From the NCBI GenBank assembly GCA_028864975.1, contig JAGWLG010000047.1, forward strand, positions 1 through 17,807: DNA of 17,807 bases, written 5' to 3'. This document shows positions 5,676 through 15,844 of this stretch, piece after piece (within the stretch, counting starts at the first letter, position 1; each line of letters opens with the position of its first letter). The notes beneath the pieces were generated by a model. The model was not told the origin of the DNA, ran no database searches, and saw nothing but the letters and a program-made list of their open reading frames with translations. The position numbers and the translations under genes were made by a program. The stretch is from Thermoplasmata archaeon. Its GTDB lineage: Archaea > Thermoplasmatota > Thermoplasmata > Lutacidiplasmatales > UBA184.

Positions 5676-8588
5676 ATGCCGAAACGCAAGAGCGCACCCC
5701 GCCCTCTCCCGGTGGCCCCGGAGGGGACGGTCGGCGGCTCGTGGCAGGCGTCCTCTGCAGGCGGGGCCCCGGGGGGAGGCGCGCCCTCCGCGCCAAGCCC
5801 TCCTCCGGCGCCGAAGGGCCGTCACATCCGAACGACGGTCCCGACGGTCGTCGACATGGGGAAGGCCCGTGAGGAGGCCCTGTTCCAGCTTCGCCTGGGC
5901 CGTCAGTCCCTGGCCTTCGGGTTCATCGCAGGGTTGCTGCTCATCGTCGACTCGGCGATCGCGCTCTTCGTCGGCACGTCCGCTCTGGCCTCCGCGGGAA
6001 GCGTTTCGCCCTTCCTGGGGGCCATCCTGTCCAATCAACCCCAGCTGATCCTTCCGCTCGCTGCCGCTCTGTTCCTCTCGATCATGGTCTTCGTCGAAAA
6101 GTACGACACGTACGGCTTCTGGCCGTTCGAGGACCATTTTGCCCTCACCGTGGCTTCGCTGGTCCTTGCCGTGGTGCTGGCGGCGGTCTACGGTCTCCAT
6201 TTCACGGGGAAGGCCCCAGGACTCCTCAACACGCTCCAGCCGGTCATCTACATTCTGGTCCTGACCTCACTTTCCCTCGGGATGGTCTCCCTCGGAACGA
6301 CCTGGCGTGGCTGGCCCATCCGCAAGATCGCCAGCGTGGTCTTCGGTGTGCTCCCGCCGCTCTTCGCCATCCCCCTTTCCTTCGCGCTCACCCCGCTGGC
6401 GAACGTCGGGGCTCCCGGCATGTCAGGGGCGTTCAACCTCCAGCTCTCGATCGAGCTCAGCTTTGCCGCGTTCCTCTACACCGCGAGCGGGGCGCAGCTC
6501 CACCTCATGGCGAGCGCGACCCGCGCCCAGGAGCGGGAGGTCGTCGCCGGGAGCCACGAGAAGCTCTTCGCCCTCTCTCAGGAACTTGCCACCCGAAGCG
6601 AGGCGGCCCTCTTCCGAGAGGAGGCGCTGGCCCGACGCGAGGCGGATGTCGAGGCCCAGGAAGGCTCCCTGGTCGAGCGGGCCCGTTTCCTGGAGGACCG
6701 GCGGTCCGAGCTCGAGACCCTGGACCGCCACCTGCGTCAGAAGTCGGACGAGATCGGAGGCCGGGAGCAGGGGCTCCTGCCCCGAGCCGCCGAGGTCACC
6801 GCGGCCGAGGGGTCCCTCAAGGAGCGGAACGCCCAGATGGCCGCGCGGGAGCACGAGCTTCAGTCGGGTTTCCAGCGGCTGGGCGACCGGGAGAAGAACC
6901 TCCTCGAGCGCGAGCAAGGGACCCGCCAGAAGGAGCTCGACCTGCAGAACCGCTCCTCCGAGGTCGCGCGCCAAGAGGCGCAGAGCCGGGTCCTGGAGCA
7001 GACCGCGCAGAGCCGGCTGGCGGAGGCCGAGCGGCGATTCGCCGGAGCCACGGCACGGGAGGCGGAAGTGCGAGCCAAGGAGTCCTCCATGGTGCTCCCT
7101 CCGGACGCGCGGTCCCGCGTCCAGGCGAAGGAACAGGAGATCCTGCGCCGGGAGGCCGCGATCGAGGCCCAGCGGGCGGAGGTCCAGGACCGCGCGAACG
7201 CGTCCACGCAGAAAGAACAGGCCGTCGAGCGACGCCGGCTGGAGCTCCAGCAGGTGGCTTCGACCATCCTGGAGCGGGAGAAGCAGGTGGCCAATCGGGA
7301 GGCGACGATCTCGGCCAAGGAGAAGCAGTACGAGGTCGAGCTGGACCTCTTGAAGGGCGCCACCAAACGCCACGAGGAGGAGATCCGCAGGTACTTCGAC
7401 GCGACGAAAAAGAGCACCCTGGTCGAGAGCCAGAGCAGCCTGATGATGAACCAGCTCAAGGAGAAGGAGACGGGATTCTCGCTCCGGGAGCAGAAGCTCC
7501 TCGAGCGGGAGCGGGAGACCCAGTCGAAGCGGGTGGAGGCGGAGCGCCTCGCGCAGGAGGCGGCCGCCCAGCGTCGGGCCCTCGAAGCGCAAACCGCGGA
7601 CCTTCGCCTGCGAAGCACCCGTCTCGAGGAGGCCGCGGCGCGCCTTTCGGCAGCGAAGCCGGCCGTGGCCGACGAGCAGCTGTCGCAAGCCCTGCGGGAC
7701 CGAGAGAAGGCGCTCGAGCTCCGCGAGCGGCAGCTCTCCGACCGCGAGCAGAAGATCCGAGCCATGGCCTACGAGAGGGACCGCCAAGCGGCCGCGGCCA
7801 GCGCCGAGGACGCCTCGGGAGGGATCTCGATCGGTCCCACCACGGTGACCCAGCGCGTGCCGGGAAAGGTCTCCACGGGAACCCCCCGCCTCGACGACCT
7901 GCTGCTCGGCGGGGTCCCCGAAAAGGCCCATGTCGCCTTGGTCGGTCCGTCCTTCGTCGGTAAGGAGGTGGCGATCTACGCCTTCCTCGCCGAGGGATTG
8001 CGCAAGGGTGAGGGGGCGCTCATTGTGAGCACCGCGCGCGCTCCGGGCGAGATCGCCAAGGAGCTCGGGGTCGTGGTCCCTTCCCTCATGGAGTACGAAG
8101 GAGCGGGCCGTGTCATCTGGGTGGACGCCTCGAACCCGGCGGGGGTCCCGAGCGGAGACTCAAGGTCGCAGAAGGGGAGCACCGTCAAGGGACCCGGGGA
8201 CCAGGTAGGGATCCTTCAGGCGATCCACAAGCACTCCGCGGAGCTCGACAAGGCCGGAAGCTTCCGGGTCGCGTTCCTCTCGCTCTCCGCCTGCATCACC
8301 CAGACCGACGAGAAGGGGGCGGCGGCGTTCGTCCAGAACGTTCTCGGCACGCTCCGGACGAAGAGGTCGATCGGGGCCTACAGCGTCGAACGAGGCATGC
8401 ACAGCGAGCAGCAGGTCCAGGCCATCGTCTCGCAGATGGACGGGGCCATCGTCTTCCAGACGGAGCGCGGCAAGAACCAGCTCCAGGTCCTGGGGCTGGG
8501 CGAGGTCCAGTCGCGCCAATGGGTGGACTACCGCTTCACGCAGCGCGCGCTGCAGCTGGGCAGCTTCTCGCTCGAGCGTATCCGGTAG
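5676..8588 (+). CDS. Membrane-anchored long coiled-coil protein with C-terminal degenerate KaiC/RAD55-like (RecA-fold) domain (970 aa)
   Basis: About 6 hydrophobic segments in aa ~75-280, then an E/R/K/Q/L/A-rich heptad region in aa ~285-705. The C-terminal domain begins KVSTGTPRLDDLLLGGVP (typical KaiC/RAD55 start), followed by the P-loop GPSFVGKE and ...MDGAIVF. Confidence 0.85.
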   Translation: MPKRKSAPRPLPVAPEGTVGGSWQASSAGGAPGGGAPSAPSPPPAPKGRHIRTTVPTVVDMGKAREEALFQLRLGRQSLAFGFIAGLLLIVDSAIALFVGTSALASAGSVSPFLGAILSNQPQLILPLAAALFLSIMVFVEKYDTYGFWPFEDHFALTVASLVLAVVLAAVYGLHFTGKAPGLLNTLQPVIYILVLTSLSLGMVSLGTTWRGWPIRKIASVVFGVLPPLFAIPLSFALTPLANVGAPGMSGAFNLQLSIELSFAAFLYTASGAQLHLMASATRAQEREVVAGSHEKLFALSQELATRSEAALFREEALARREADVEAQEGSLVERARFLEDRRSELETLDRHLRQKSDEIGGREQGLLPRAAEVTAAEGSLKERNAQMAAREHELQSGFQRLGDREKNLLEREQGTRQKELDLQNRSSEVARQEAQSRVLEQTAQSRLAEAERRFAGATAREAEVRAKESSMVLPPDARSRVQAKEQEILRREAAIEAQRAEVQDRANASTQKEQAVERRRLELQQVASTILEREKQVANREATISAKEKQYEVELDLLKGATKRHEEEIRRYFDATKKSTLVESQSSLMMNQLKEKETGFSLREQKLLERERETQSKRVEAERLAQEAAAQRRALEAQTADLRLRSTRLEEAAARLSAAKPAVADEQLSQALRDREKALELRERQLSDREQKIRAMAYERDRQAAAASAEDASGGISIGPTTVTQRVPGKVSTGTPRLDDLLLGGVPEKAHVALVGPSFVGKEVAIYAFLAEGLRKGEGALIVSTARAPGEIAKELGVVVPSLMEYEGAGRVIWVDASNPAGVPSGDSRSQKGSTVKGPGDQVGILQAIHKHSAELDKAGSFRVAFLSLSACITQTDEKGAAAFVQNVLGTLRTKRSIGAYSVERGMHSEQQVQAIVSQMDGAIVFQTERGKNQLQVLGLGEVQSRQWVDYRFTQRALQLGSFSLERIR
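6600..7760 (+). repeat. Protein-level imperfect heptad repeat (x-x-[RK]-E-x-x-[LIV]) forming a coiled coil
   Basis: Examples: GDREKNLLEREQGT, QAKEQEILRREAAI, LEREKQVANREATISAKEKQY, SLREQKLLERERET, RDREKALELRERQLSDREQKI. The repeat is not conserved at nucleotide level. Confidence 0.75.
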
Positions 8589-8624
8589 GGCCGGACGCAA
8601 GCTTCCCTGTCGTGGAACGGCGTG

Positions 8625-8632
8625 AACCTTAT
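8625..8632 (+). promoter_or_regulatory. Putative BRE/TATA-like element AACCTTAT upstream of the hydrolase gene
   Basis: Same motif as 915-922, located in the 107-nt gap before ATG 8696. Confidence 0.35.
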
Positions 8633-8695
8633 CTCGCGTTCCGACCCCGGTGACCTCCGTTCGGGGTCGAGGGTCCAGCCGAGCGGGGCAGGAAG

Positions 8696-9373
8696 ATGAC
8701 CGGGGAGGGAGCGAGGTTGCGGTCCTGGTGGGGCAGGGTGTGGTCGACCGCTGTCCCGTGGATACCTTTCCTCGGGGTCTTCGCGATTGTCGCCTTCGCC
8801 TGGGCCTCCTTGGTCAACCTTGCCGCCAGCGCGAACCACGTTCCGCTGGTCGGGCCCCGGGTCGCGTTCTGGAGCGAGACCATCGATGCCTTCTGGCACC
8901 TGGGGACTGGGTTCCTTCTTGCCCTTCCTGCTCGAGACCGCCGTCTTCTCTTCCTCGCCCCGGTCCTTTCGCTCGGGCTCGACATCGACCATGCCTTCGG
9001 GCTGTTGTTGCCCGCCAGCGTGCCGCGACCCGACCACGCCCTTCTCTTCATCCTCCTGATCACGGTCGTGGCTGCGCTCTGGAAGGGACGGCTGCCCGCC
9101 CTGGCGACGGCAGGGGCCATAGCGACCCATCTCGCGGTCGACGGGGGCGACTTCCCCTTGCTCGACCCGGTGACGATGGCTCGGTGGCCCTTCCCGCTGT
9201 GGGCGAGCGCGCTGGCGCTTGCTCTGGCCGGAGCGCTCTTCCTGCTGGCCCTGCCCGGCCCCCGCCGATGGACGGTTCGAAGGGCCTGGGTGGAGCTTGC
9301 GGTCATCGTGACCGCGCTCGTGCTCTTTCTCGCCCTCGTGGGGCCGAGTGCCTGGCTCTTCCTCTCGAATTGA
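8696..9373 (+). CDS. Membrane-bound metal-dependent hydrolase, YdjM-like (225 aa)
   Basis: Hydrophobic protein with ordered motifs WH, LDIDH, RPDHALLF, THLAVD and FPLLDP. These parallel the YdjM pattern H...PDxD...R-x-x-THS...SHLLLD...PLLWP. Confidence 0.7.
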   Translation: MTGEGARLRSWWGRVWSTAVPWIPFLGVFAIVAFAWASLVNLAASANHVPLVGPRVAFWSETIDAFWHLGTGFLLALPARDRRLLFLAPVLSLGLDIDHAFGLLLPASVPRPDHALLFILLITVVAALWKGRLPALATAGAIATHLAVDGGDFPLLDPVTMARWPFPLWASALALALAGALFLLALPGPRRWTVRRAWVELAVIVTALVLFLALVGPSAWLFLSN

Positions 9374-12300
9374 AGGACGGACGGGGACGCGCCCCTGATG
9401 GAAGGTGGGCGCACGGGGGGGCGTCGAAAGCGACTTCCCCCACCTCGCTGTGGGTCACCTCGACCTTGGCAGGAAGCCCGGCCCCCCCTCTCGCGACGTC
9501 GTCGGCAGTCCCTTTCGTGGGCCGGACCCGAGAGACGAACGTTCTTGAGGAGGCCCTGAGGAGGGCCCAGAACGGCGAGGGGAGCACCTGGCTGCTGGAG
9601 GGCCCGGGAGGGATCGGCAAGACCCGGCTCGCAAGATGGCTCGAGTCCCGTGCGCGCGCGGAGGGCTTCCGGACCCTCTGGGGTTACTGCCTGAAGCAGG
9701 CCCTCTCCCCTTTCTTCCCGTTCGAACAGATCTTCCGGCACGAACCGGAACGAGGTCGAATCGCTGGCGAAGGCCCTCCCTCCGCCGACCTGGCATCGGA
9801 GGACCTTCCTACCGTCACGATCTTCGAGTCCGATCGGCCGACCGAGATGCTCCATCGGGTCTCCCGGCTCTCGTCCCGTCACGCGACCCTGCTCGCGACG
9901 CGGGACCGGCCCGCCGCCCTTCGACCTCGGCTCCCCGGGCTCGCCGAAGGTGCCCGCCTCCTCTGGCTAACACGCTCGGAGGGGGAGGGGTGTGTCAACC
10001 CGAGCGACCTGGACGGCCTCGGCAAGCGGGTCGAGGACCACCTGCGCCAGCATCCCGGAGGGCTCGCAGGGATCGCAGGGCTGGAGTATCTCGTCAGCCA
10101 GCGGGACTTCACCTCGGTCCTCCGGCTCGTGCAGTTCCTCCGGGACGTCGCGGAGAGCGCCGGGGGACACCTCTTCGTGAACCTCCTTCCCGCGGGGCTG
10201 GAACGGCGCGAGACGACCCTCCTCGAGGCGGAGGGGGAGGTCGTTCGTCCCGAGGCCGCGCTCCCCGTCCAAGGTCCGACGCCCCCCGCGGTGACCCTGC
10301 TTCGCTACCTGAACATCCTGGAGCGCGACGCGACGCGGGAGCGACCTTTCCTGCTCGTCCTGGACGATGTCCAGTGGGCGGACCCCGCCTCCCTCGAGGC
10401 CCTGCTGTTCCTCTCGAGGAACACGCAGCGGCTGCCCGTCCTGATCGTCGGCACCCTCCGGAGCGAAGAGGTCCCTTTGGAGAGCGAGGGCGGCGACCCG
10501 AAGGTGCTCGAGGTCCTCGAGCACATGGAGCGCGAGGGGTCGATGCAGCGCCTCACGCTCCGGGGCCTCTCCAGGAACGAGATCGTCCAGGTCGCGGAAG
10601 GCCTGCTCGAAGCGAAGCTCGAACTCTCTTCGCGGGACCAGGAGTTCCTCCGCTCCCTGGAGCGGACCGCCGGGAACCCCTACTTCGTGCTCTCGATGGT
10701 CCGGATGCTGGCGGACCAAGGCTTCCTCCGCCGGGAGGGCACGGAGGCCCGCCTGGTCGGCGGGGAGGAAGGGCGTTTCTCCACCTTGCCCGACAGCATC
10801 CGTCGAGTGGTCGAACGTCAGTTCTCCTCCCTCCCACCGGAGTCCCGGACGGTCCTCGAGGTCGCCTCCGTCATGGGGGAGGAGTTCGACCTTTCCGCGC
10901 TCTCGGGGGTCCTGGGCCGCCCCCGCGACCCGCTCGAGGCCGTTGTACGCACCCTCGAGCGGGAACACCACTTCCTCCAGCCCTCGCTGGAGGGAGAGAA
11001 CGGTTGGTCCTTCTCCCATCCGCTCGCGTGGGAAGTGATCGCGGGTCAGATCGGTCCCGAGCGTTACCGGTCCATCTCACGGGAGCTCGCGGAGTGGTGG
11101 GCCCGCTCCCGCCCCGGCGACGCGGAGAACATCGCCCGACTCTACCACCAGGCGCGCGCCCCGGAGCCGGGTCTCGACTGGGTCCGTCGTCTCGTCCAGA
11201 AAGCGCTCCGCCTGCCCTCGGACCAGCTCGCCGAGCGCTACCACCGATGGCTCCAGGACCTCCTCGCCGAACAGGGGAAGACCGCGGACGCGCGTGTTGA
11301 GGAGGGGCTCGAGATCGTCCACTACATCGGCAGTGCCATCGGTCCCTGTGAAGGGGTCCGGGGGATCCTTCGACGCCTCTCCCAGCTCCCGGCTTCCGAT
11401 GTCCCCAAGTGGAGGATCCGGGACTGGGCCATCCGGTTCCACAGCGTGGTCGACCCGAAGGAGGCGGTACGGAGGATGGAGGCGCTGCGCGCCGAGATCG
11501 ACCGCAGCGGGACCCCGCTGCCTCCCCTGGTCCAGGCCCACCTCGAGTTGACCCATGCCGTTGCGCTCGCCGGTCAGGGGCGCTACCTCGAGGGCATGGA
11601 GCCGCTCTCCCGCGCCATCGAGCTCCAGGACCCGACCCATCCCGCGACGGAGCGCGCGCTCGCGGCCCTGTTCCAAGGGGTCTTCCTCGCGGCCGCCAGC
11701 CCTGAGGAGGGCCTAGCGAAGCTCCGGGAGGGCAAGGCCCTGGCGACCGCGTCGGGAGCCCGCCTCCTTTCCTTCCTCTTCCTCCGCTACGAAGGCACCC
11801 TCGCCCGCTACTGGGGGCAACTGACGCAGGCCGTCCGGTCGCTCGATGCGAGCATCCTCGAGAGCCGCACGAACGGGGCCATCGAGTGGCTGGAGATCGT
11901 CCTGCTCGACAAGACCATGGTCCTGACAGAGCGCGGTGAGCTTCCGGCGGCACGGGAGTGCTGGCAAGAGGCGAGGGACCTCGCCCAGAAGTTCCAGCAC
12001 CCGGTGGGACTGTGTTACGTCACCCTCGCCGAGGGATACATGCTCACGGCGGAGGGGAGGTCCCGGGAGGCGCTCCCCCTGTTGGAGGAAGCCCACCAGC
12101 GCTTCCGGTCCCTAGGTCAGCTCGAAGGCTACCGGAACTGCGGCCTCTCCCTCGTCGAGGTGTTGGAAGACCTGGGGGAGTGGGAGCGGGCGGACGCCCT
12201 GCTCCCGAAGCTCGTGGAGGAGGTCCTCGAGCCATGGCCGCTGGCGTGGGCCGACCTCTTGAAAGCGCGAATGGCGGAGCATCGTGGGGAGCCCGACCGG

Positions 12301-12498
12301 GCTAGGGAGTTCCTTCAGGAAGCGCGGGACTACTCCACGACGGGGCAGCACCGTCTCATGCTCGCCCGCACGCTCCGGGAGCAGGCGAGGTGGGAGGAGC
12401 GGCACAGATCGAAAGAGAACGCCTCCCGTCTCGAACGAGAGTCGGCGACGCTCTACCGCGAGATCGGAGCCCGCCCGTTCTCCGCGCAACACTCTTAG
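9370..12498 (+). CDS. STAND/AAA_16-type NTPase with inserted DUF835-like domain and C-terminal TPR-like repeats (about 1040 aa; start uncertain)
   Basis: FVGR (9514), Walker A GPGGIGKT (9601-9624), Walker B LLVLDDVQWAD (10351-10383), sensor-1-like LIVGTLR, GNPYF (GxP motif), winged-helix-like FSHPLAWE, then Ala/Leu/Glu/Arg-rich helical repeats. TTG 9370 overlaps the upstream TGA (TTGA). The ORF-track extension from 8650 overlaps the hydrolase gene and looks non-coding. Confidence 0.85.
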   Translation: MKDGRGRAPDGRWAHGGASKATSPTSLWVTSTLAGSPAPPLATSSAVPFVGRTRETNVLEEALRRAQNGEGSTWLLEGPGGIGKTRLARWLESRARAEGFRTLWGYCLKQALSPFFPFEQIFRHEPERGRIAGEGPPSADLASEDLPTVTIFESDRPTEMLHRVSRLSSRHATLLATRDRPAALRPRLPGLAEGARLLWLTRSEGEGCVNPSDLDGLGKRVEDHLRQHPGGLAGIAGLEYLVSQRDFTSVLRLVQFLRDVAESAGGHLFVNLLPAGLERRETTLLEAEGEVVRPEAALPVQGPTPPAVTLLRYLNILERDATRERPFLLVLDDVQWADPASLEALLFLSRNTQRLPVLIVGTLRSEEVPLESEGGDPKVLEVLEHMEREGSMQRLTLRGLSRNEIVQVAEGLLEAKLELSSRDQEFLRSLERTAGNPYFVLSMVRMLADQGFLRREGTEARLVGGEEGRFSTLPDSIRRVVERQFSSLPPESRTVLEVASVMGEEFDLSALSGVLGRPRDPLEAVVRTLEREHHFLQPSLEGENGWSFSHPLAWEVIAGQIGPERYRSISRELAEWWARSRPGDAENIARLYHQARAPEPGLDWVRRLVQKALRLPSDQLAERYHRWLQDLLAEQGKTADARVEEGLEIVHYIGSAIGPCEGVRGILRRLSQLPASDVPKWRIRDWAIRFHSVVDPKEAVRRMEALRAEIDRSGTPLPPLVQAHLELTHAVALAGQGRYLEGMEPLSRAIELQDPTHPATERALAALFQGVFLAAASPEEGLAKLREGKALATASGARLLSFLFLRYEGTLARYWGQLTQAVRSLDASILESRTNGAIEWLEIVLLDKTMVLTERGELPAARECWQEARDLAQKFQHPVGLCYVTLAEGYMLTAEGRSREALPLLEEAHQRFRSLGQLEGYRNCGLSLVEVLEDLGEWERADALLPKLVEEVLEPWPLAWADLLKARMAEHRGEPDRAREFLQEARDYSTTGQHRLMLARTLREQARWEERHRSKENASRLERESATLYREIGARPFSAQHS

Positions 12499-12535
12499 AG
12501 GGAGTCCCCGGTCCTGTCGCGCGAGGAGCCATAGC

Positions 12536-13771
12536 GTGCCCGTCAGGGAGGTCCGGGCCGGCCAGCGAGGCGTCGGTCGAGTACCGATGCTCGAGGCGGC
12601 GGCCGCCGCCGCCCAAGCAAGCCATCCCGAAGGGCTGGCCGGCGCAGCCCTCCCTCCTGTCGGAGAAGAGGGACAGGAACAGCGACGTCTCGTCTATCGT
12701 CGCCGCGACATCCTCCGTTACGCTCCTGCCGCGGTCCTCCGTCGTCTTTGGGTGCAGCTCTCGGTCCTGCTGGCCATGTTCCTCTCCTGCGCCGCGCTGT
12801 TCTACTACTTCCGCGGCCCTCTGGGGAACCCGACGATGGACGCGCTGGGGGCGCTTCTGGGCGCGGTCTCGACCATCACCACCATCGGGATCTACGCCCC
12901 CGCGAACCTCATCCTGCTCCCGGACTGGGCCAAGGGGGCCTTCATCGTCATCTTCCTGGTGAGCGTGGGGGCGGCGGCGAGCATCGTGCAGACCGTATTG
13001 ACCCAGGCGGTCAACCGAGACCTCTGGACGGAGGACGTCCTCCGTCGGGAGGTGGCCAAGATGAAGGACCACGTCGTCGTCATGGGGTACTCCTTCCTGG
13101 GCCGATACGTCGCCGACAAGCTGCGCGACATGGACGTCCCGTTCGTCGTGGTCGTGCGGGACAACCAAGACCTGGTGAAGCTCCGCGAGCAAGGGGTCCC
13201 GGCCTTCTCGAGCCCGGTCACGGAGTTCCACCGCGCCCTCGAAGATGTGGGGGTCCGGCGGGCCTCGACGATGATCTGCACCTTCAACGAGGACCCCGAC
13301 AATCTGATGGCCGTGCTCTACGCCAACAAGGTCCACCCCCAGCTGCGCATCATCACGATCGTGCACGACCGCGAGCTCGTGCCCTCGGCCAAAATGGCCG
13401 GAGCCGACGTGGTCTTCCCCATGGCCAACATCCTGGGCGACCTCCTAGGCCTCACCGCGGTCTCCCGGGAGGTCGCAGGGGTCATCCTCTCCGCGAAGAT
13501 CCCCGGACGCTACCTGGCTGAGTTCGAGATCCCCAAGGGGAAGGCCATCACCTTCGGACGACTGAACGCGCTCGCCCCCGTGCTCCTCGTCCTCCAGGAC
13601 GGCAAGACCTTCAGCAACCCTCCGGACGACTTCGCCATCCACGGGGGAAGCACGGCCTTCATGCTCACGAGCACGGAGGGCCTCCACCGCATACGCCGCG
13701 AGCTCGGGAGCGGCCCGGTGAGCACCTCCCTTGAACCGCACGAGCACACCGAATCCTCCGCTCGACCCTAG
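12536..13771 (+). CDS. 2-TM potassium-channel-like protein with RCK (TrkA_N) domain, MthK/Kch-type; atypical filter
   Basis: TM1 LWVQLSVLLAMFLSCAALFYYF, pore helix/filter AVSTITTIGIY, TM2 KGAFIVIFLVSVGAAASIV. RCK motifs KMKDHVVVMGYSFLG and AKMAGADVVFP. GAGGAG lies 7 nt before GTG 12536 (alternative ATG 12587). Confidence 0.85.
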   Translation: MPVREVRAGQRGVGRVPMLEAAAAAAQASHPEGLAGAALPPVGEEGQEQRRLVYRRRDILRYAPAAVLRRLWVQLSVLLAMFLSCAALFYYFRGPLGNPTMDALGALLGAVSTITTIGIYAPANLILLPDWAKGAFIVIFLVSVGAAASIVQTVLTQAVNRDLWTEDVLRREVAKMKDHVVVMGYSFLGRYVADKLRDMDVPFVVVVRDNQDLVKLREQGVPAFSSPVTEFHRALEDVGVRRASTMICTFNEDPDNLMAVLYANKVHPQLRIITIVHDRELVPSAKMAGADVVFPMANILGDLLGLTAVSREVAGVILSAKIPGRYLAEFEIPKGKAITFGRLNALAPVLLVLQDGKTFSNPPDDFAIHGGSTAFMLTSTEGLHRIRRELGSGPVSTSLEPHEHTESSARP

Positions 13772-14297: not shown

Positions 14298-14531
14298 ATG
14301 GGCAACATCCGTCAGACGTACATCAAGCGTGTCGCGATCGAGCTGGTCAAGCTCCACCCCGACGCGTTCACGGCGGACTACAAGCACAACCACGCGAAGG
14401 TCCTGGAGCTCACGGACCTGGTGGAGAAGGGACCCACGGGTGCCGACCGGGTGAAGTTCAAGAAGCTCGCGAACCGCATCGCCGGTTACGCGACCCGCTA
14501 CTACAAGCGGCAGAAGCGCCAGGTCTCCTAG
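14298..14531 (+). CDS. rps17e: 30S ribosomal protein S17e
   Basis: MGNIRQTYIKRVAIEL...F-x-x-D-Y-x-x-N...NRIAGYATR matches the S17e signature. Confidence 0.95.
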   Translation: MGNIRQTYIKRVAIELVKLHPDAFTADYKHNHAKVLELTDLVEKGPTGADRVKFKKLANRIAGYATRYYKRQKRQVS

Positions 14532-15844
14532 CGCGGTTTCGCGACCGGCGGTCTTCCTTCCCCGCCCTTGCTGGGGTCGTAGGAGAGGGCCCGAAGCTCC
14601 TTTCTCGTGGAGAAGACCCCGCCGACCCCCAGGCACCCGATGGCGGCCACCGCATAGGTCACGAGCACCCCGCGGGCTGCCGTCAAGAGTCCACCGGTGA
14701 CCTGAGCGATCGGCGTCGCCGCGAAGCTCCCCAGGTTGTCGAGCGAGAAGTACCTGCCCTGGAACTCATCGGGGACGATGGCCTGGGCGGTCGAGAGCCA
14801 CGCGGTGCCGATCATGCCGCCGAACACCCCCGTGGCCAGGCTGACCGCGATTGCGGTCGCAAGGACCCACGGGCCAACACCGAGAAGGAGCGGGGCGATG
14901 ACCAGGGCGCCATAGGAGGCTCCGAAGAAGAGCCCTGCGGAAGCCCATAGCACACCCGCTCGCCGGGTCAGGTGGAACGCCCCGGCGGCCAACCCGCCCA
15001 CGACAACGCCCGCGAAGCCCACGGCGTTCAGTACCCCGAACATGAGCGCTCCCGCGTGGAGCACCTGCGCGACGTAGATGACCGTGAAGAGGCCCACCAG
15101 CGTCGTGAAGAAGTTCAGCCCCAGGGCCGAGAGAGTGAGCTCGAGCAGCCCCGTTTGGCCCCGGAGGTACCTTGCGCCCTCGACGATCTCCGACACCAAG
15201 CCCGCGGGGGTCGTCGCGGCTCGGGGTGGGGTGGACGGGGGGCGCACCTCGGACGGTCGGATGGCGAGCACGAGAGCACCCCCCACGACGAACGACACCG
15301 CGTCCAGCATGAGAGCGGGGACGATGCCGAGCAAGGCCACGACCACCCCCGCCAAGGAGGCGCCCGCGATCCCCACCGAGTTCTCCGAGGCCTGGAGCAT
15401 CGCGTTGGCGGGAGCGAGGTCCGACCGCTCCACGATCTGCGGTAGGAGGACCGTCGTCGCGGGTCCCATGAACGACGACAGCAGCGAGAAGACGACGACG
15501 ACCGCCAGGACGATGGTCAAGTGGAAGCCCATCGCGATGGTCGCGCCGACCAACACGGCCATCGAGAGCGCCCTCCCCAGGGTCGTCAACCCGCTCGTCC
15601 GACGTCGGTCGAACCGGTCGACCAGCGCCCCCGCGAAGAGCCCCACCGTCAAGCTTGGGAGGAGCTCCGCCAGTCCGACCAGGGTCAGGGCGATGGGGGA
15701 GCGCGTGGCGGAGTAGACGTACCAGACCAAGGCCACGGCGCCCAGGTTGTTCCCGAAGCGCGCCACCGTCCGGGCGGAGAAGAGAAGGGCGAAGGGGCGC
15801 CGCCGCAGGAGGGGGCCCCAGGAGTGGGATGAGGGTTCGGCCAT
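14528..15844 (-). CDS. MFS transporter, DHA3/MefA-like efflux family (438 aa)
   Basis: About 12 TMs. N-terminus LLRRRPFALLFSARTVARFG, motif A GALVDRFDRRR, late motif VPDEFQGRYFSL. Confidence 0.9.
   Translation of the reverse strand: MAEPSSHSWGPLLRRRPFALLFSARTVARFGNNLGAVALVWYVYSATRSPIALTLVGLAELLPSLTVGLFAGALVDRFDRRRTSGLTTLGRALSMAVLVGATIAMGFHLTIVLAVVVVFSLLSSFMGPATTVLLPQIVERSDLAPANAMLQASENSVGIAGASLAGVVVALLGIVPALMLDAVSFVVGGALVLAIRPSEVRPPSTPPRAATTPAGLVSEIVEGARYLRGQTGLLELTLSALGLNFFTTLVGLFTVIYVAQVLHAGALMFGVLNAVGFAGVVVGGLAAGAFHLTRRAGVLWASAGLFFGASYGALVIAPLLLGVGPWVLATAIAVSLATGVFGGMIGTAWLSTAQAIVPDEFQGRYFSLDNLGSFAATPIAQVTGGLLTAARGVLVTYAVAAIGCLGVGGVFSTRKELRALSYDPSKGGEGRPPVAKPR

Follow-up and report, generated by a model that had tools for sequence, protein, structure and literature searches.

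What is a domain that has lost its own nucleotide-binding motifs doing inside a second nucleotide-binding domain that has kept them? This question is posed by a gene in a 17,807-nucleotide stretch of DNA from a Thermoplasmata archaeon (GenBank assembly GCA_028864975.1, contig JAGWLG010000047.1), referred to here as the window, which is the whole of one contig (G000:C65) of a 3.6-Mb genome in 124 contigs. The gene occupies positions 9466 to 12498 of the forward strand, begins with a TTG start codon, and encodes a protein of 1,010 amino acids in which the Pfam families AAA_16, DUF835, and TPR are recognized. The protein is a STAND nucleoside triphosphatase (NTPase) with a TPR sensor, and its DUF835 domain is nested between the Walker A and Walker B motifs of the NTPase, an architecture that we regard as very nearly certain.

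A preliminary description, made from the sequence before any database search, had placed the two Walker motifs about 240 codons apart with a DUF835-like block at 9805 to 10248 between them, and had predicted both a PF05763 (DUF835) match inside a split PF13191 (AAA_16) match and an independent RecA-like domain within the NTPase. Each of these points held. Direct reading puts Walker A (GPGGIGKT) at 9601 to 9624 and Walker B (LLVLDDVQWAD) at 10351 to 10383, exactly as described, with a spacing of 241 residues. The Pfam search matched PF13191 with 78 to 79.5 bits (cutoff, 32.6) in two stretches flanking the insert, and PF05763 with 68 bits (E value, 9.5e-19) when 9805 to 10248 was searched alone and with 62 bits in the whole protein (cutoff, 33.1). 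The PF05763 match spans profile positions 12 to 135 of 136, a genome-wide scan placing it at 9859 to 10233, and the motifs that had been quoted as typical of DUF835 are all present (TLLATRDRP, LLWLT, NPSDLDGL, GIAGLEYLV, LRLVQFLRD, and RRETTLLEAE). Chance is not the explanation, since every one of the 40 inserted members scanned conserves the block.

The predicted structure separates the two domains along the same borders. For structure prediction, an alignment was made of N-terminal modules from 40 relatives in nine genomes, that of the window included, and AlphaFold2 modeled residues 1 to 435 as an AAA+/STAND core enclosing an independent domain, with a mean predicted local distance difference test (pLDDT) score of 88.7 and low values only at residues 94 to 111 and 266 to 269, the two connectors of the insert. 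The N-terminal half of the NTPase (residues 17 to 93; 9514 to 9744) comprises the FVGR helix, beta1, the P-loop, alpha1, beta2, and the PFFPFEQIFR motif; it corresponds to AAA_16 profile positions 1 to about 85 and was modeled with pLDDT values of 91 to 98. The insertion point lies after the PFFPFEQ-x-FR motif behind beta2 and before the helix (PPAVTLLRYL...) that runs into the Walker B strand. Linker 1 (residues 94 to 112; 9745 to 9801), variable and probably flexible, with pLDDT below 50 over residues 94 to 111 and a length that differs among paralogs, leads into the inserted domain (residues 113 to 262; 9802 to 10251), which is defined by PF05763 and by the model. Linker 2 (residues 263 to 273; 10252 to 10284) leads out of it, with a pLDDT of 58 in the block from 261 to 270 and values below 50 at its low point. 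The C-terminal half of the NTPase and its helical arm (residues 274 to 435; 10285 to 10770), identified by an AAA_22/AAA_16 C-terminal match and modeled mostly above 90, contain the helix, the Walker B strand, the sensor-1 strand VLIVGTLR, and the GNPYF motif. Beyond them lie a winged-helix/arm region (residues 436 to 600; 10771 to 11265), whose borders are approximate and which aligns with the uninserted paralogs described below, and the TPR sensor array (residues 601 to 1010; 11266 to 12498), defined by TPR_12 and TPR_MalT matches.

In the host NTPase, both the Walker A (GxxxxGK[ST]) and Walker B (hhhhDD) signatures are intact, the latter as LLVLDD at 10351 to 10368, and so are the sensor motifs. 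Among the 40 relatives, which share about 35% identity, G51 and K52 of Walker A, D300, W304, and D306 of the Walker B region, and R318 are invariant, D301 is present in at least 90%, and R332 and the GNP motif are nearly invariant. When the core of the two-domain model was compared without the insert by VIA-align, it matched Orc1/Cdc6 (Z score, 15.5), MalT (8bob_D; Z, 14.0), ZAR1 (6j5t; Z, 13.9), Avs3 (8dgc; Z, 12.8), and PH0952 (6mfv_A; Z, 12.5; root mean square deviation [rmsd], 2.6). Since Orc1/Cdc6 scored above MalT, fold alone cannot part STAND proteins from Orc/Cdc6. The repeat array of the window copy matched TPR_12 with 31 to 33 bits (cutoff, 30.1) and TPR_MalT below its cutoff; at an E value of 0.001 or less, TPR_12 was found in 38 of the 40 inserted members and TPR_MalT in 30. 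A profile of the family matched the TPR regions of AfsR, PH0952, and MalT with E values of 1e-13 to 1e-17, and a PDB sequence search with the full-length protein matched only a designed TPR. By hidden Markov model (HMM) match, motifs, fold, and repeat sensor alike, the gene product is a STAND protein of the AAA_16/MalT type, and its NTPase presumably still works as a ligand-gated nucleotide switch.

The insert has a fold of its own. Modeled alone (9802 to 10251), it formed a compact alpha/beta domain with a pLDDT of 96.7 and a predicted template-modeling score of 0.90, and the top Foldseek matches were FlaH (4yds; E value, 1.3e-5; TMq, 0.70), KaiC (7s65_B; TMq, 0.70), and RecA. VIA-align with model residues 104 to 270 likewise returned FlaH (Z, 13.8 over 155 residues; rmsd, 3.5), PH0284 (Z, 12.6), Sso2452 (Z, 12.3), and RecA. 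Because core and insert have separate fold matches, the protein presents one P-loop fold nested in another. At the level of sequence, PF06745, the family of active KaiC-like ATPases, was not among the Pfam matches of the insert; a PDB search with the insert alone returned nothing useful, and a search with its profile returned only a weak match to FlaH (E value, 0.12). A complex prediction with two copies of the insert scored 0.00 against a mark of 0.42, a result that counts neither way.

The preliminary description had called this KaiC-type domain inactive and had remarked on an alanine in place of the aspartate before GLEYL, and a wider sample of 41 sequences bears it out. At the position of the P-loop, now degenerate (ESDRP; 9826 to 9840), the family has E-E-[ED]-[RK]-P instead of GxxGxGK[ST], with neither glycines nor a GK[ST]. 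The strand equivalent to Walker B reads GIAGLEYLVSQ (10069 to 10101), with the alanine at the aspartate position; this column, set by the weak profile alignment to the FlaH strand and used for positional correspondence only, holds alanine 13 times, glutamate 10, serine 6, threonine 4, and glycine 3, and aspartate in none of the 41 sequences. Downstream of the lost aspartate follow E-Y-L-x-S-Q, of which Y, L, and Q are nearly invariant, and the almost invariant LRLVQFLRD helix. Judged by its motifs, the insert is a catalytically dead KaiC/RecA-like domain, and the protein appears to pair it with a live host NTPase.

Is the nested domain a peculiarity of one gene? A phmmer search of all long frames of the genome recovered 14 full-length paralogs with the nested domain and at least 7 paralogs of the same family without it, whose matches skip query residues from about 100 to 275, the part that bears the insert. 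In a MAFFT alignment of the 14 inserted and 7 uninserted paralogs, both flanks align and a clean indel of 150 to 170 amino acids falls at one site, so placed that the Walker A-to-B spacing is 236 to 265 residues in the inserted paralogs versus 80 to 133 in the uninserted ones. On a tree of the core from which the insert columns had been removed, inserted and uninserted copies were interleaved; monophyly of the inserted copies was not obtained, and the starred branches force at least two changes. The uninserted paralog P0043, with about 10 residues at the insert site, is the sister of the inserted P0038 with 97% support in the Shimodaira-Hasegawa-like approximate likelihood ratio test. The core therefore tolerates the cassette whether present or absent, and clean loss or gain is possible.

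A loop so permissive, with 80 to 133 residues even where nothing is inserted and with a clean loss of the insert at least once (P0043), might be thought to carry a functionless passenger, but the conservation of the insert makes that barely credible. Mean pairwise identity among the 40 members is 0.48 for the insert, as high as for the catalytic core (0.53 and 0.50 for the N- and C-terminal halves of the NTPase) and far above that of its linkers (0.13 for linker 1 and 0.22 for linker 2). The domain is kept in all 40 members despite their low overall identity, and invariant polar residues are numerous in it (R146, Y208, Q212, and R226, for example).

Toward the C terminus, identity declines to 0.37 in the arm, 0.40 in the winged-helix region, and 0.245 in the TPR array, a gradient of the kind expected if variable sensors feed a switch and an output that both stay constant. 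No other effector or DNA-binding domain was found in any of the 40 inserted proteins (Pfam; E value of 0.001 or less), which extends to the whole sample the earlier remark that no kinase, cyclase, nuclease, or LuxR-type helix-turn-helix (HTH) effector is visible in the window protein. Among the uninserted paralogs, three of nine have a weak winged HTH (wHTH) match of the MarR_2, HTH_Crp_2, or GntR type at an end, with E values of 8e-6 to 9e-5, below the Pfam cutoffs. These matches, two C-terminal and one N-terminal (L143:1-3126, L144:1-3180, and L146:1-3147), suggest that the three proteins are MalT-like transcription regulators.

What the constant output could be is suggested by the company that DUF835 keeps elsewhere. 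Galperin et al. (2018, PMC5847659) call the domain iKaiC, an inactivated KaiC-like domain, and list response regulators of Methanomicrobia and Thermoplasmata, with the architectures REC-DUF835 and REC-PAS-PAS-DUF835, in which it serves as the output; the fusions in that paper are terminal only, REC-DUF835 among them, in agreement with the expectation that DUF835 usually stands alone or at a terminus. The genome of the window has 28 DUF835 matches, and all those outside the nested family are C-terminal, in eight proteins of 290 to 440 amino acids and in two large Kelch/PKD receptor-like proteins. The latter, L157 (G000:C115:27443-30913; frame of 1,157 amino acids) and L158 (G000:C124:32281-36573; frame of 1,431 amino acids), combine a Kelch beta-propeller, PKD, and Ig-like domains with a C-terminal DUF835 domain, the match in L158 being below the cutoff (27 bits versus 33.1). 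Their domain composition would fit receptor-like domains joined to an iKaiC transmitter.

We favor the reading, to which we assign a probability of roughly 0.55, that the insert is the output or adaptor module of a ligand-gated STAND switch. The preliminary description had likewise offered the insert as a possible output or as an interaction module on the rim of the oligomer, an idea with which the conservation gradient and the placement of DUF835 in other proteins of this genome agree. The variable TPR array would capture a ligand or signal, and capture would lead to nucleotide exchange and oligomerization by the intact host NTPase. Oligomerization would in turn expose or cluster the DUF835 domains, for which the long, variable, low-confidence linkers of the model suggest a tethered rather than a docked state. 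Once exposed, these domains might engage a shared downstream partner, maybe the one that also serves REC-DUF835 proteins and membrane receptors with DUF835, and possibly a hub formed by a small KaiC-like ATPase.

Several observations weigh against this reading. No downstream partner was identified. The genome encodes five small KaiC-like ATPases (G000:C15:17548-18216, C52:11640-12326, C119:31591-32244, C21:647-1393, and C28:4280-4969), and 4 of the 28 DUF835 genes lie within 6 kb of KaiC-like genes against 1.2 expected (p of about 0.03), a weak excess that was not significant at 3 kb (p = 0.13) or 10 kb (p = 0.10) and that we do not count in favor of the hub. When the open reading frames (ORFs) up to 7 kb from each of the 14 inserted paralogs were compared all against all, no conserved neighbor emerged, the recurrent "families" being shadow ORFs on the paralogs themselves. 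The uninserted relatives P0043 to P0045 are also without an effector, so that the inserted form is not alone in having none at an end; the wHTH matches of other uninserted copies, as noted, fall short of the Pfam cutoffs. Lastly, the insert site, between Walker A and Walker B and near the nucleotide site, fits a regulatory role equally well. As a separate observation, the closest DUF835/KaiC pairing of the genome is on another contig, where a DUF835 frame (G000:C28:3294-3701) lies about 0.6 kb upstream, on the same strand, of the KaiC-like ATPase L165 (G000:C28:4280-4969).

If the role were regulatory, the insert would be a built-in regulator or a second input that gates nucleotide exchange or oligomerization of the host, either through autoinhibition or because its remodeled cleft takes up a small ligand or a phospho-protein, and the real output would be the oligomer or the TPR array. 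For domain II of Rvb1/Rvb2, the known precedent for an insertion at the equivalent place between the Walker motifs, a role in regulating helicase activity and the assembly of dodecamers has been proposed (PMC4706439), and E121, P125, R146, Y208, and Q212, which surround the former nucleotide cleft, are among the most conserved residues of the insert. On the other hand, DUF835 takes the transmitter or output position in all other architectures of this genome and of the literature, the linkers look like those of a tethered domain, and the uninserted paralogs manage with a short loop at the same site. We consider gating of the host by the insert, the chief alternative to the output reading, rather unlikely.

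The output reading concerns one family, and its range is narrow. A profile search of 1.84 billion protein representatives yielded about 65 clusters (at 50% identity) with a continuous NTPase-insert-NTPase match, among them a more divergent subgroup in which DUF835 is stronger and more canonical (94 to 130 bits); one cluster of this subgroup is labeled by NCBI "DUF835 domain-containing protein [Thermoplasmata archaeon]". The best named relative of the window gene is a "Thermoplasmata archaeon" metagenome-assembled genome. The nested form was found only in Thermoplasmata, and all of its members are from genomes of uncultured Thermoplasmata. Within the order (186 genomes), it occurs in four of four genomes of the same genus (9 to 12 or more copies scored), five of five of a second genus (5 to 12 copies), and one of eight of a third, and in an even sample of the class (301 genomes, 89 genera) it was confined to the same three genera. 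The ESM Atlas held generic AAA_16 clusters only and no large cluster with the nested form. Source annotations of the family give "TPR repeat protein", "predicted ATPase", or nothing. A literature search that did not extend to Makarova et al. 2017 (mBio), the source of iKaiC, found no description of a DUF835 domain nested in a STAND protein; together with the narrow lineage, this leaves standing the earlier view that the layout is not a characterized one. DNA of the window gene is carried by mine-drainage and soil metagenomes from two studies, some possibly the source sample; no RNA data set was listed among the carriers, which bears on expression neither way.

Two kinds of related frames lie outside the nested form as defined here. 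One relative (G009:C2:25637-26245), in a frame of 887 amino acids, matches only from query residue 121, that is, from DUF835 onward, and may be a variant without the Walker A half. Four other matches to the DUF835 region (G015:C8:21837-22277, G013:C3:2956-3396, G010:C15:64835-65308, and G004:C9:62208-62582) lie in frames of 668 to 1,604 amino acids with one or two in-frame TGA codons, which could be two genes, pseudogenes, or instances of recoding.

Copies of the nested form come and go even within the genus. Orthologs at 61 to 72% identity were present in congeners for 3 of 10 copies tested, and the window copy reached at most 48% over its N-terminal module among the fetched copies. The window locus itself was compared with two congeners (G013:C54 and G014:C5) by blastn and tblastn. 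The ABC, FtsX, transmembrane (TM)-coiled-coil-KaiC, and membrane-protein genes are syntenic there, flanking genes being 50 to 88% identical, and the STAND gene is absent from both: the 3.36 kb at 9345 to 12706 of the window are represented in G013 by 309 bp of continuous sequence without N. Neither flanking repeats nor a transposition signature was found around the 3.36-kb segment. The gene lies in a variable spot and is polymorphic, present or absent, at the level of strains; the inserted paralog family as a whole is lineage-restricted with fast turnover.

Such turnover invites the idea that these proteins are NLR-like conflict or defense sensors, in which the hypervariable TPR array would recognize invader molecules and the DUF835 adaptor would trigger dormancy or death. 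A large family (14 copies here and 5 to 12 or more in relatives), the scarcity of congener orthologs, the polymorphism of the window gene within conserved synteny, the TPR array as the fastest-evolving part, and a core that resembles the Avs3 and plant NLR folds would all suit such a role. Against it, PADLOC reported only BrxD, with 26 bits over residues 18 to 93, the P-loop region, and the NCBIfam BrxD model scored 26 bits against a cutoff of 350; the 40 inserted members contain no nuclease, protease, TIR, or other toxic effector; neither conserved neighbors nor defense-island genes occur at the 14 loci; and the uninserted sister paralogs, by their weak wHTH matches, look like MalT-type regulators. 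We think a defensive role unlikely, and note that it concerns the biological role of the family and is compatible with the insert as an output.

The neighborhood of the gene suggests another candidate partnership. Upstream, at 5676 to 8588 on the forward strand, a gene encodes a protein of 970 amino acids whose hydrophobic/TM N terminus is followed by a long charged coiled coil and, at the C terminus, by a KaiC-family domain (DUF7090; PF06745, 33 bits). At the syntenic site in the two congeners, its identity is 73 to 76% in one comparison by tblastn and 74 to 77% in another comparison, and its C-terminal domain has shorter relatives in the second genus. It is followed by a gene at 8696 to 9373 (forward strand) for a hydrophobic membrane protein of 225 amino acids, tentatively named YdjM-like in the preliminary description, which has no Pfam family at an E value of 0.1 or less and is 50 to 56% identical in the congeners. 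The long frame that holds the STAND gene extends from 8650 to 12498 on the same strand; its part 5' of 9466 belongs to this other gene, and the product from the TTG at 9466 is the same as that of gene call P0002 in the database. Downstream are an RCK/TrkA-N channel gene (12536 to 13771, forward strand), absent from G014, and an MFS transporter gene (14528 to 15844, reverse strand), absent from both G013 and G014.

Co-orientation, short gaps, and the KaiC-family domain of the upstream protein could be read as a dedicated four-gene module, made of the TM-coiled-coil-dead-KaiC protein, the membrane protein, the STAND protein, and the RCK channel, in which DUF835 and the dead KaiC domain encoded upstream would form a pair. 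The congeners speak plainly here: the neighbors are syntenic in G013 and G014 with the STAND gene missing, so that its partnership with the upstream gene is not a conserved one, and such a neighbor stands beside none of the 13 other inserted paralogs. The absence of the STAND gene from the syntenic loci largely refutes the module, and we hold it to be very improbable.

Does the loop that received DUF835 accept other domains? Other Thermoplasmata AAA_16-TPR proteins have Walker A-to-B spacings of 213 to 223 residues and carry a different insert of about 120 amino acids at the same site (L010:5395-5859, L011:5497-5961 and 8604-9068, L013:6238-6702, L014:6259-6723, L015:5497-5961, and L052:6238-6702). 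This insert has a mean column identity of 60%, no Pfam match at an E value of 5 or less, and no PDB profile match; its nearest ESM Atlas clusters are stand-alone archaeal proteins of 140 to 160 amino acids (0.92 to 0.93). A Roadblock/LC7-like identity was considered for it and not established, there being no Pfam or PDB match and only an Atlas lead to Roadblock/LAMTOR2 at 0.86.

If this second insert were confirmed, the loop would be a recurrent insertion port. A further step, which we regard as speculative and rather unlikely, is that the loop that runs from beta2 to the helix before Walker B is a modular output port, filled with DUF835 in one Thermoplasmata lineage and with the unrelated second insert in others, and that DUF835 links cytoplasmic STAND sensors, membrane receptors (Kelch/PKD-DUF835), and response regulators (REC-DUF835) to a shared hub, such as a small KaiC-like ATPase. 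Were that so, these proteins would form a new class of NLR-like switches with the effector or adaptor nested inside the nucleotide-binding domain. In the usual STAND/NLR scheme, effector, nucleotide-binding domain, and sensor are arranged end to end, and a nested dead P-loop output would extend it. The output reading, if true, would in addition provide the orphan DUF835 domain with a role open to testing, for which the inserted and uninserted paralogs of one genome are a natural experimental pair. With 28 matches to DUF835 in a 3.6-Mb genome, and with an output role for the domain in the literature, the question bears on signaling in archaea without classical transmitter domains.

Among known systems, MalT of Escherichia coli, PH0952 of Pyrococcus horikoshii (6MFV), and AfsR share with the window protein the order of FVGR helix, AAA_16 domain, arm and winged helix, and C-terminal TPR array. 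In those proteins about 80 to 130 residues separate Walker A from Walker B, whereas here the same loop holds a RecA-fold domain of 150 amino acids, and MalT and AfsR have an effector at an end (a LuxR HTH and a SARP, respectively), whereas the window protein has no end-attached effector. Described DUF835 domains belong to the same HMM family as the insert, have the RecA/KaiC fold, and have likewise lost the NTPase motifs; they are terminal or stand-alone, whereas this one is nested between residues 93 and 274 of an AAA_16 domain. The nested copies form a tight subgroup, with 48% mutual identity versus about 30% to terminal DUF835 domains.

In structure, the insert comes closest to FlaH/ArlH and the small archaeal KaiC-like ATPases (4YDS, 4WIA, 2DR3, and 2W0M). 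Such stand-alone FlaH/KaiC-like proteins bind ATP through their Walker motifs. FlaH-type proteins have about 230 amino acids, whereas the insert has about 150, is without Walker A or Walker B, and resembles them weakly in sequence (profile E value, 0.12). Avs and NLR-type STAND immune sensors have in common with the window protein the NOD fold, a repeat-type sensor, expanded families, and fast turnover; the window protein differs in having no N-terminal effector (nuclease, protease, TIR, or CARD), and its PADLOC match is limited to the P-loop fragment.

The closest parallel in topology is Rvb1/Rvb2 (RuvBL1/2), which likewise has an independent domain II of 160 to 170 amino acids between Walker A and Walker B, flexibly connected (PMC4706439), and RuvBL chains were among the Foldseek matches of the two-domain model. 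The RuvBL insert is an oligonucleotide/oligosaccharide-binding fold in a classical AAA+ hexamer of eukaryotes and archaea, whereas the insert described here is a dead RecA/KaiC fold in a STAND protein; the two are not homologous, and the likeness is best taken as an analogy of topology, not as family membership. The fold types of the window protein are themselves known, and it is the nesting of DUF835 that departs from every described architecture.

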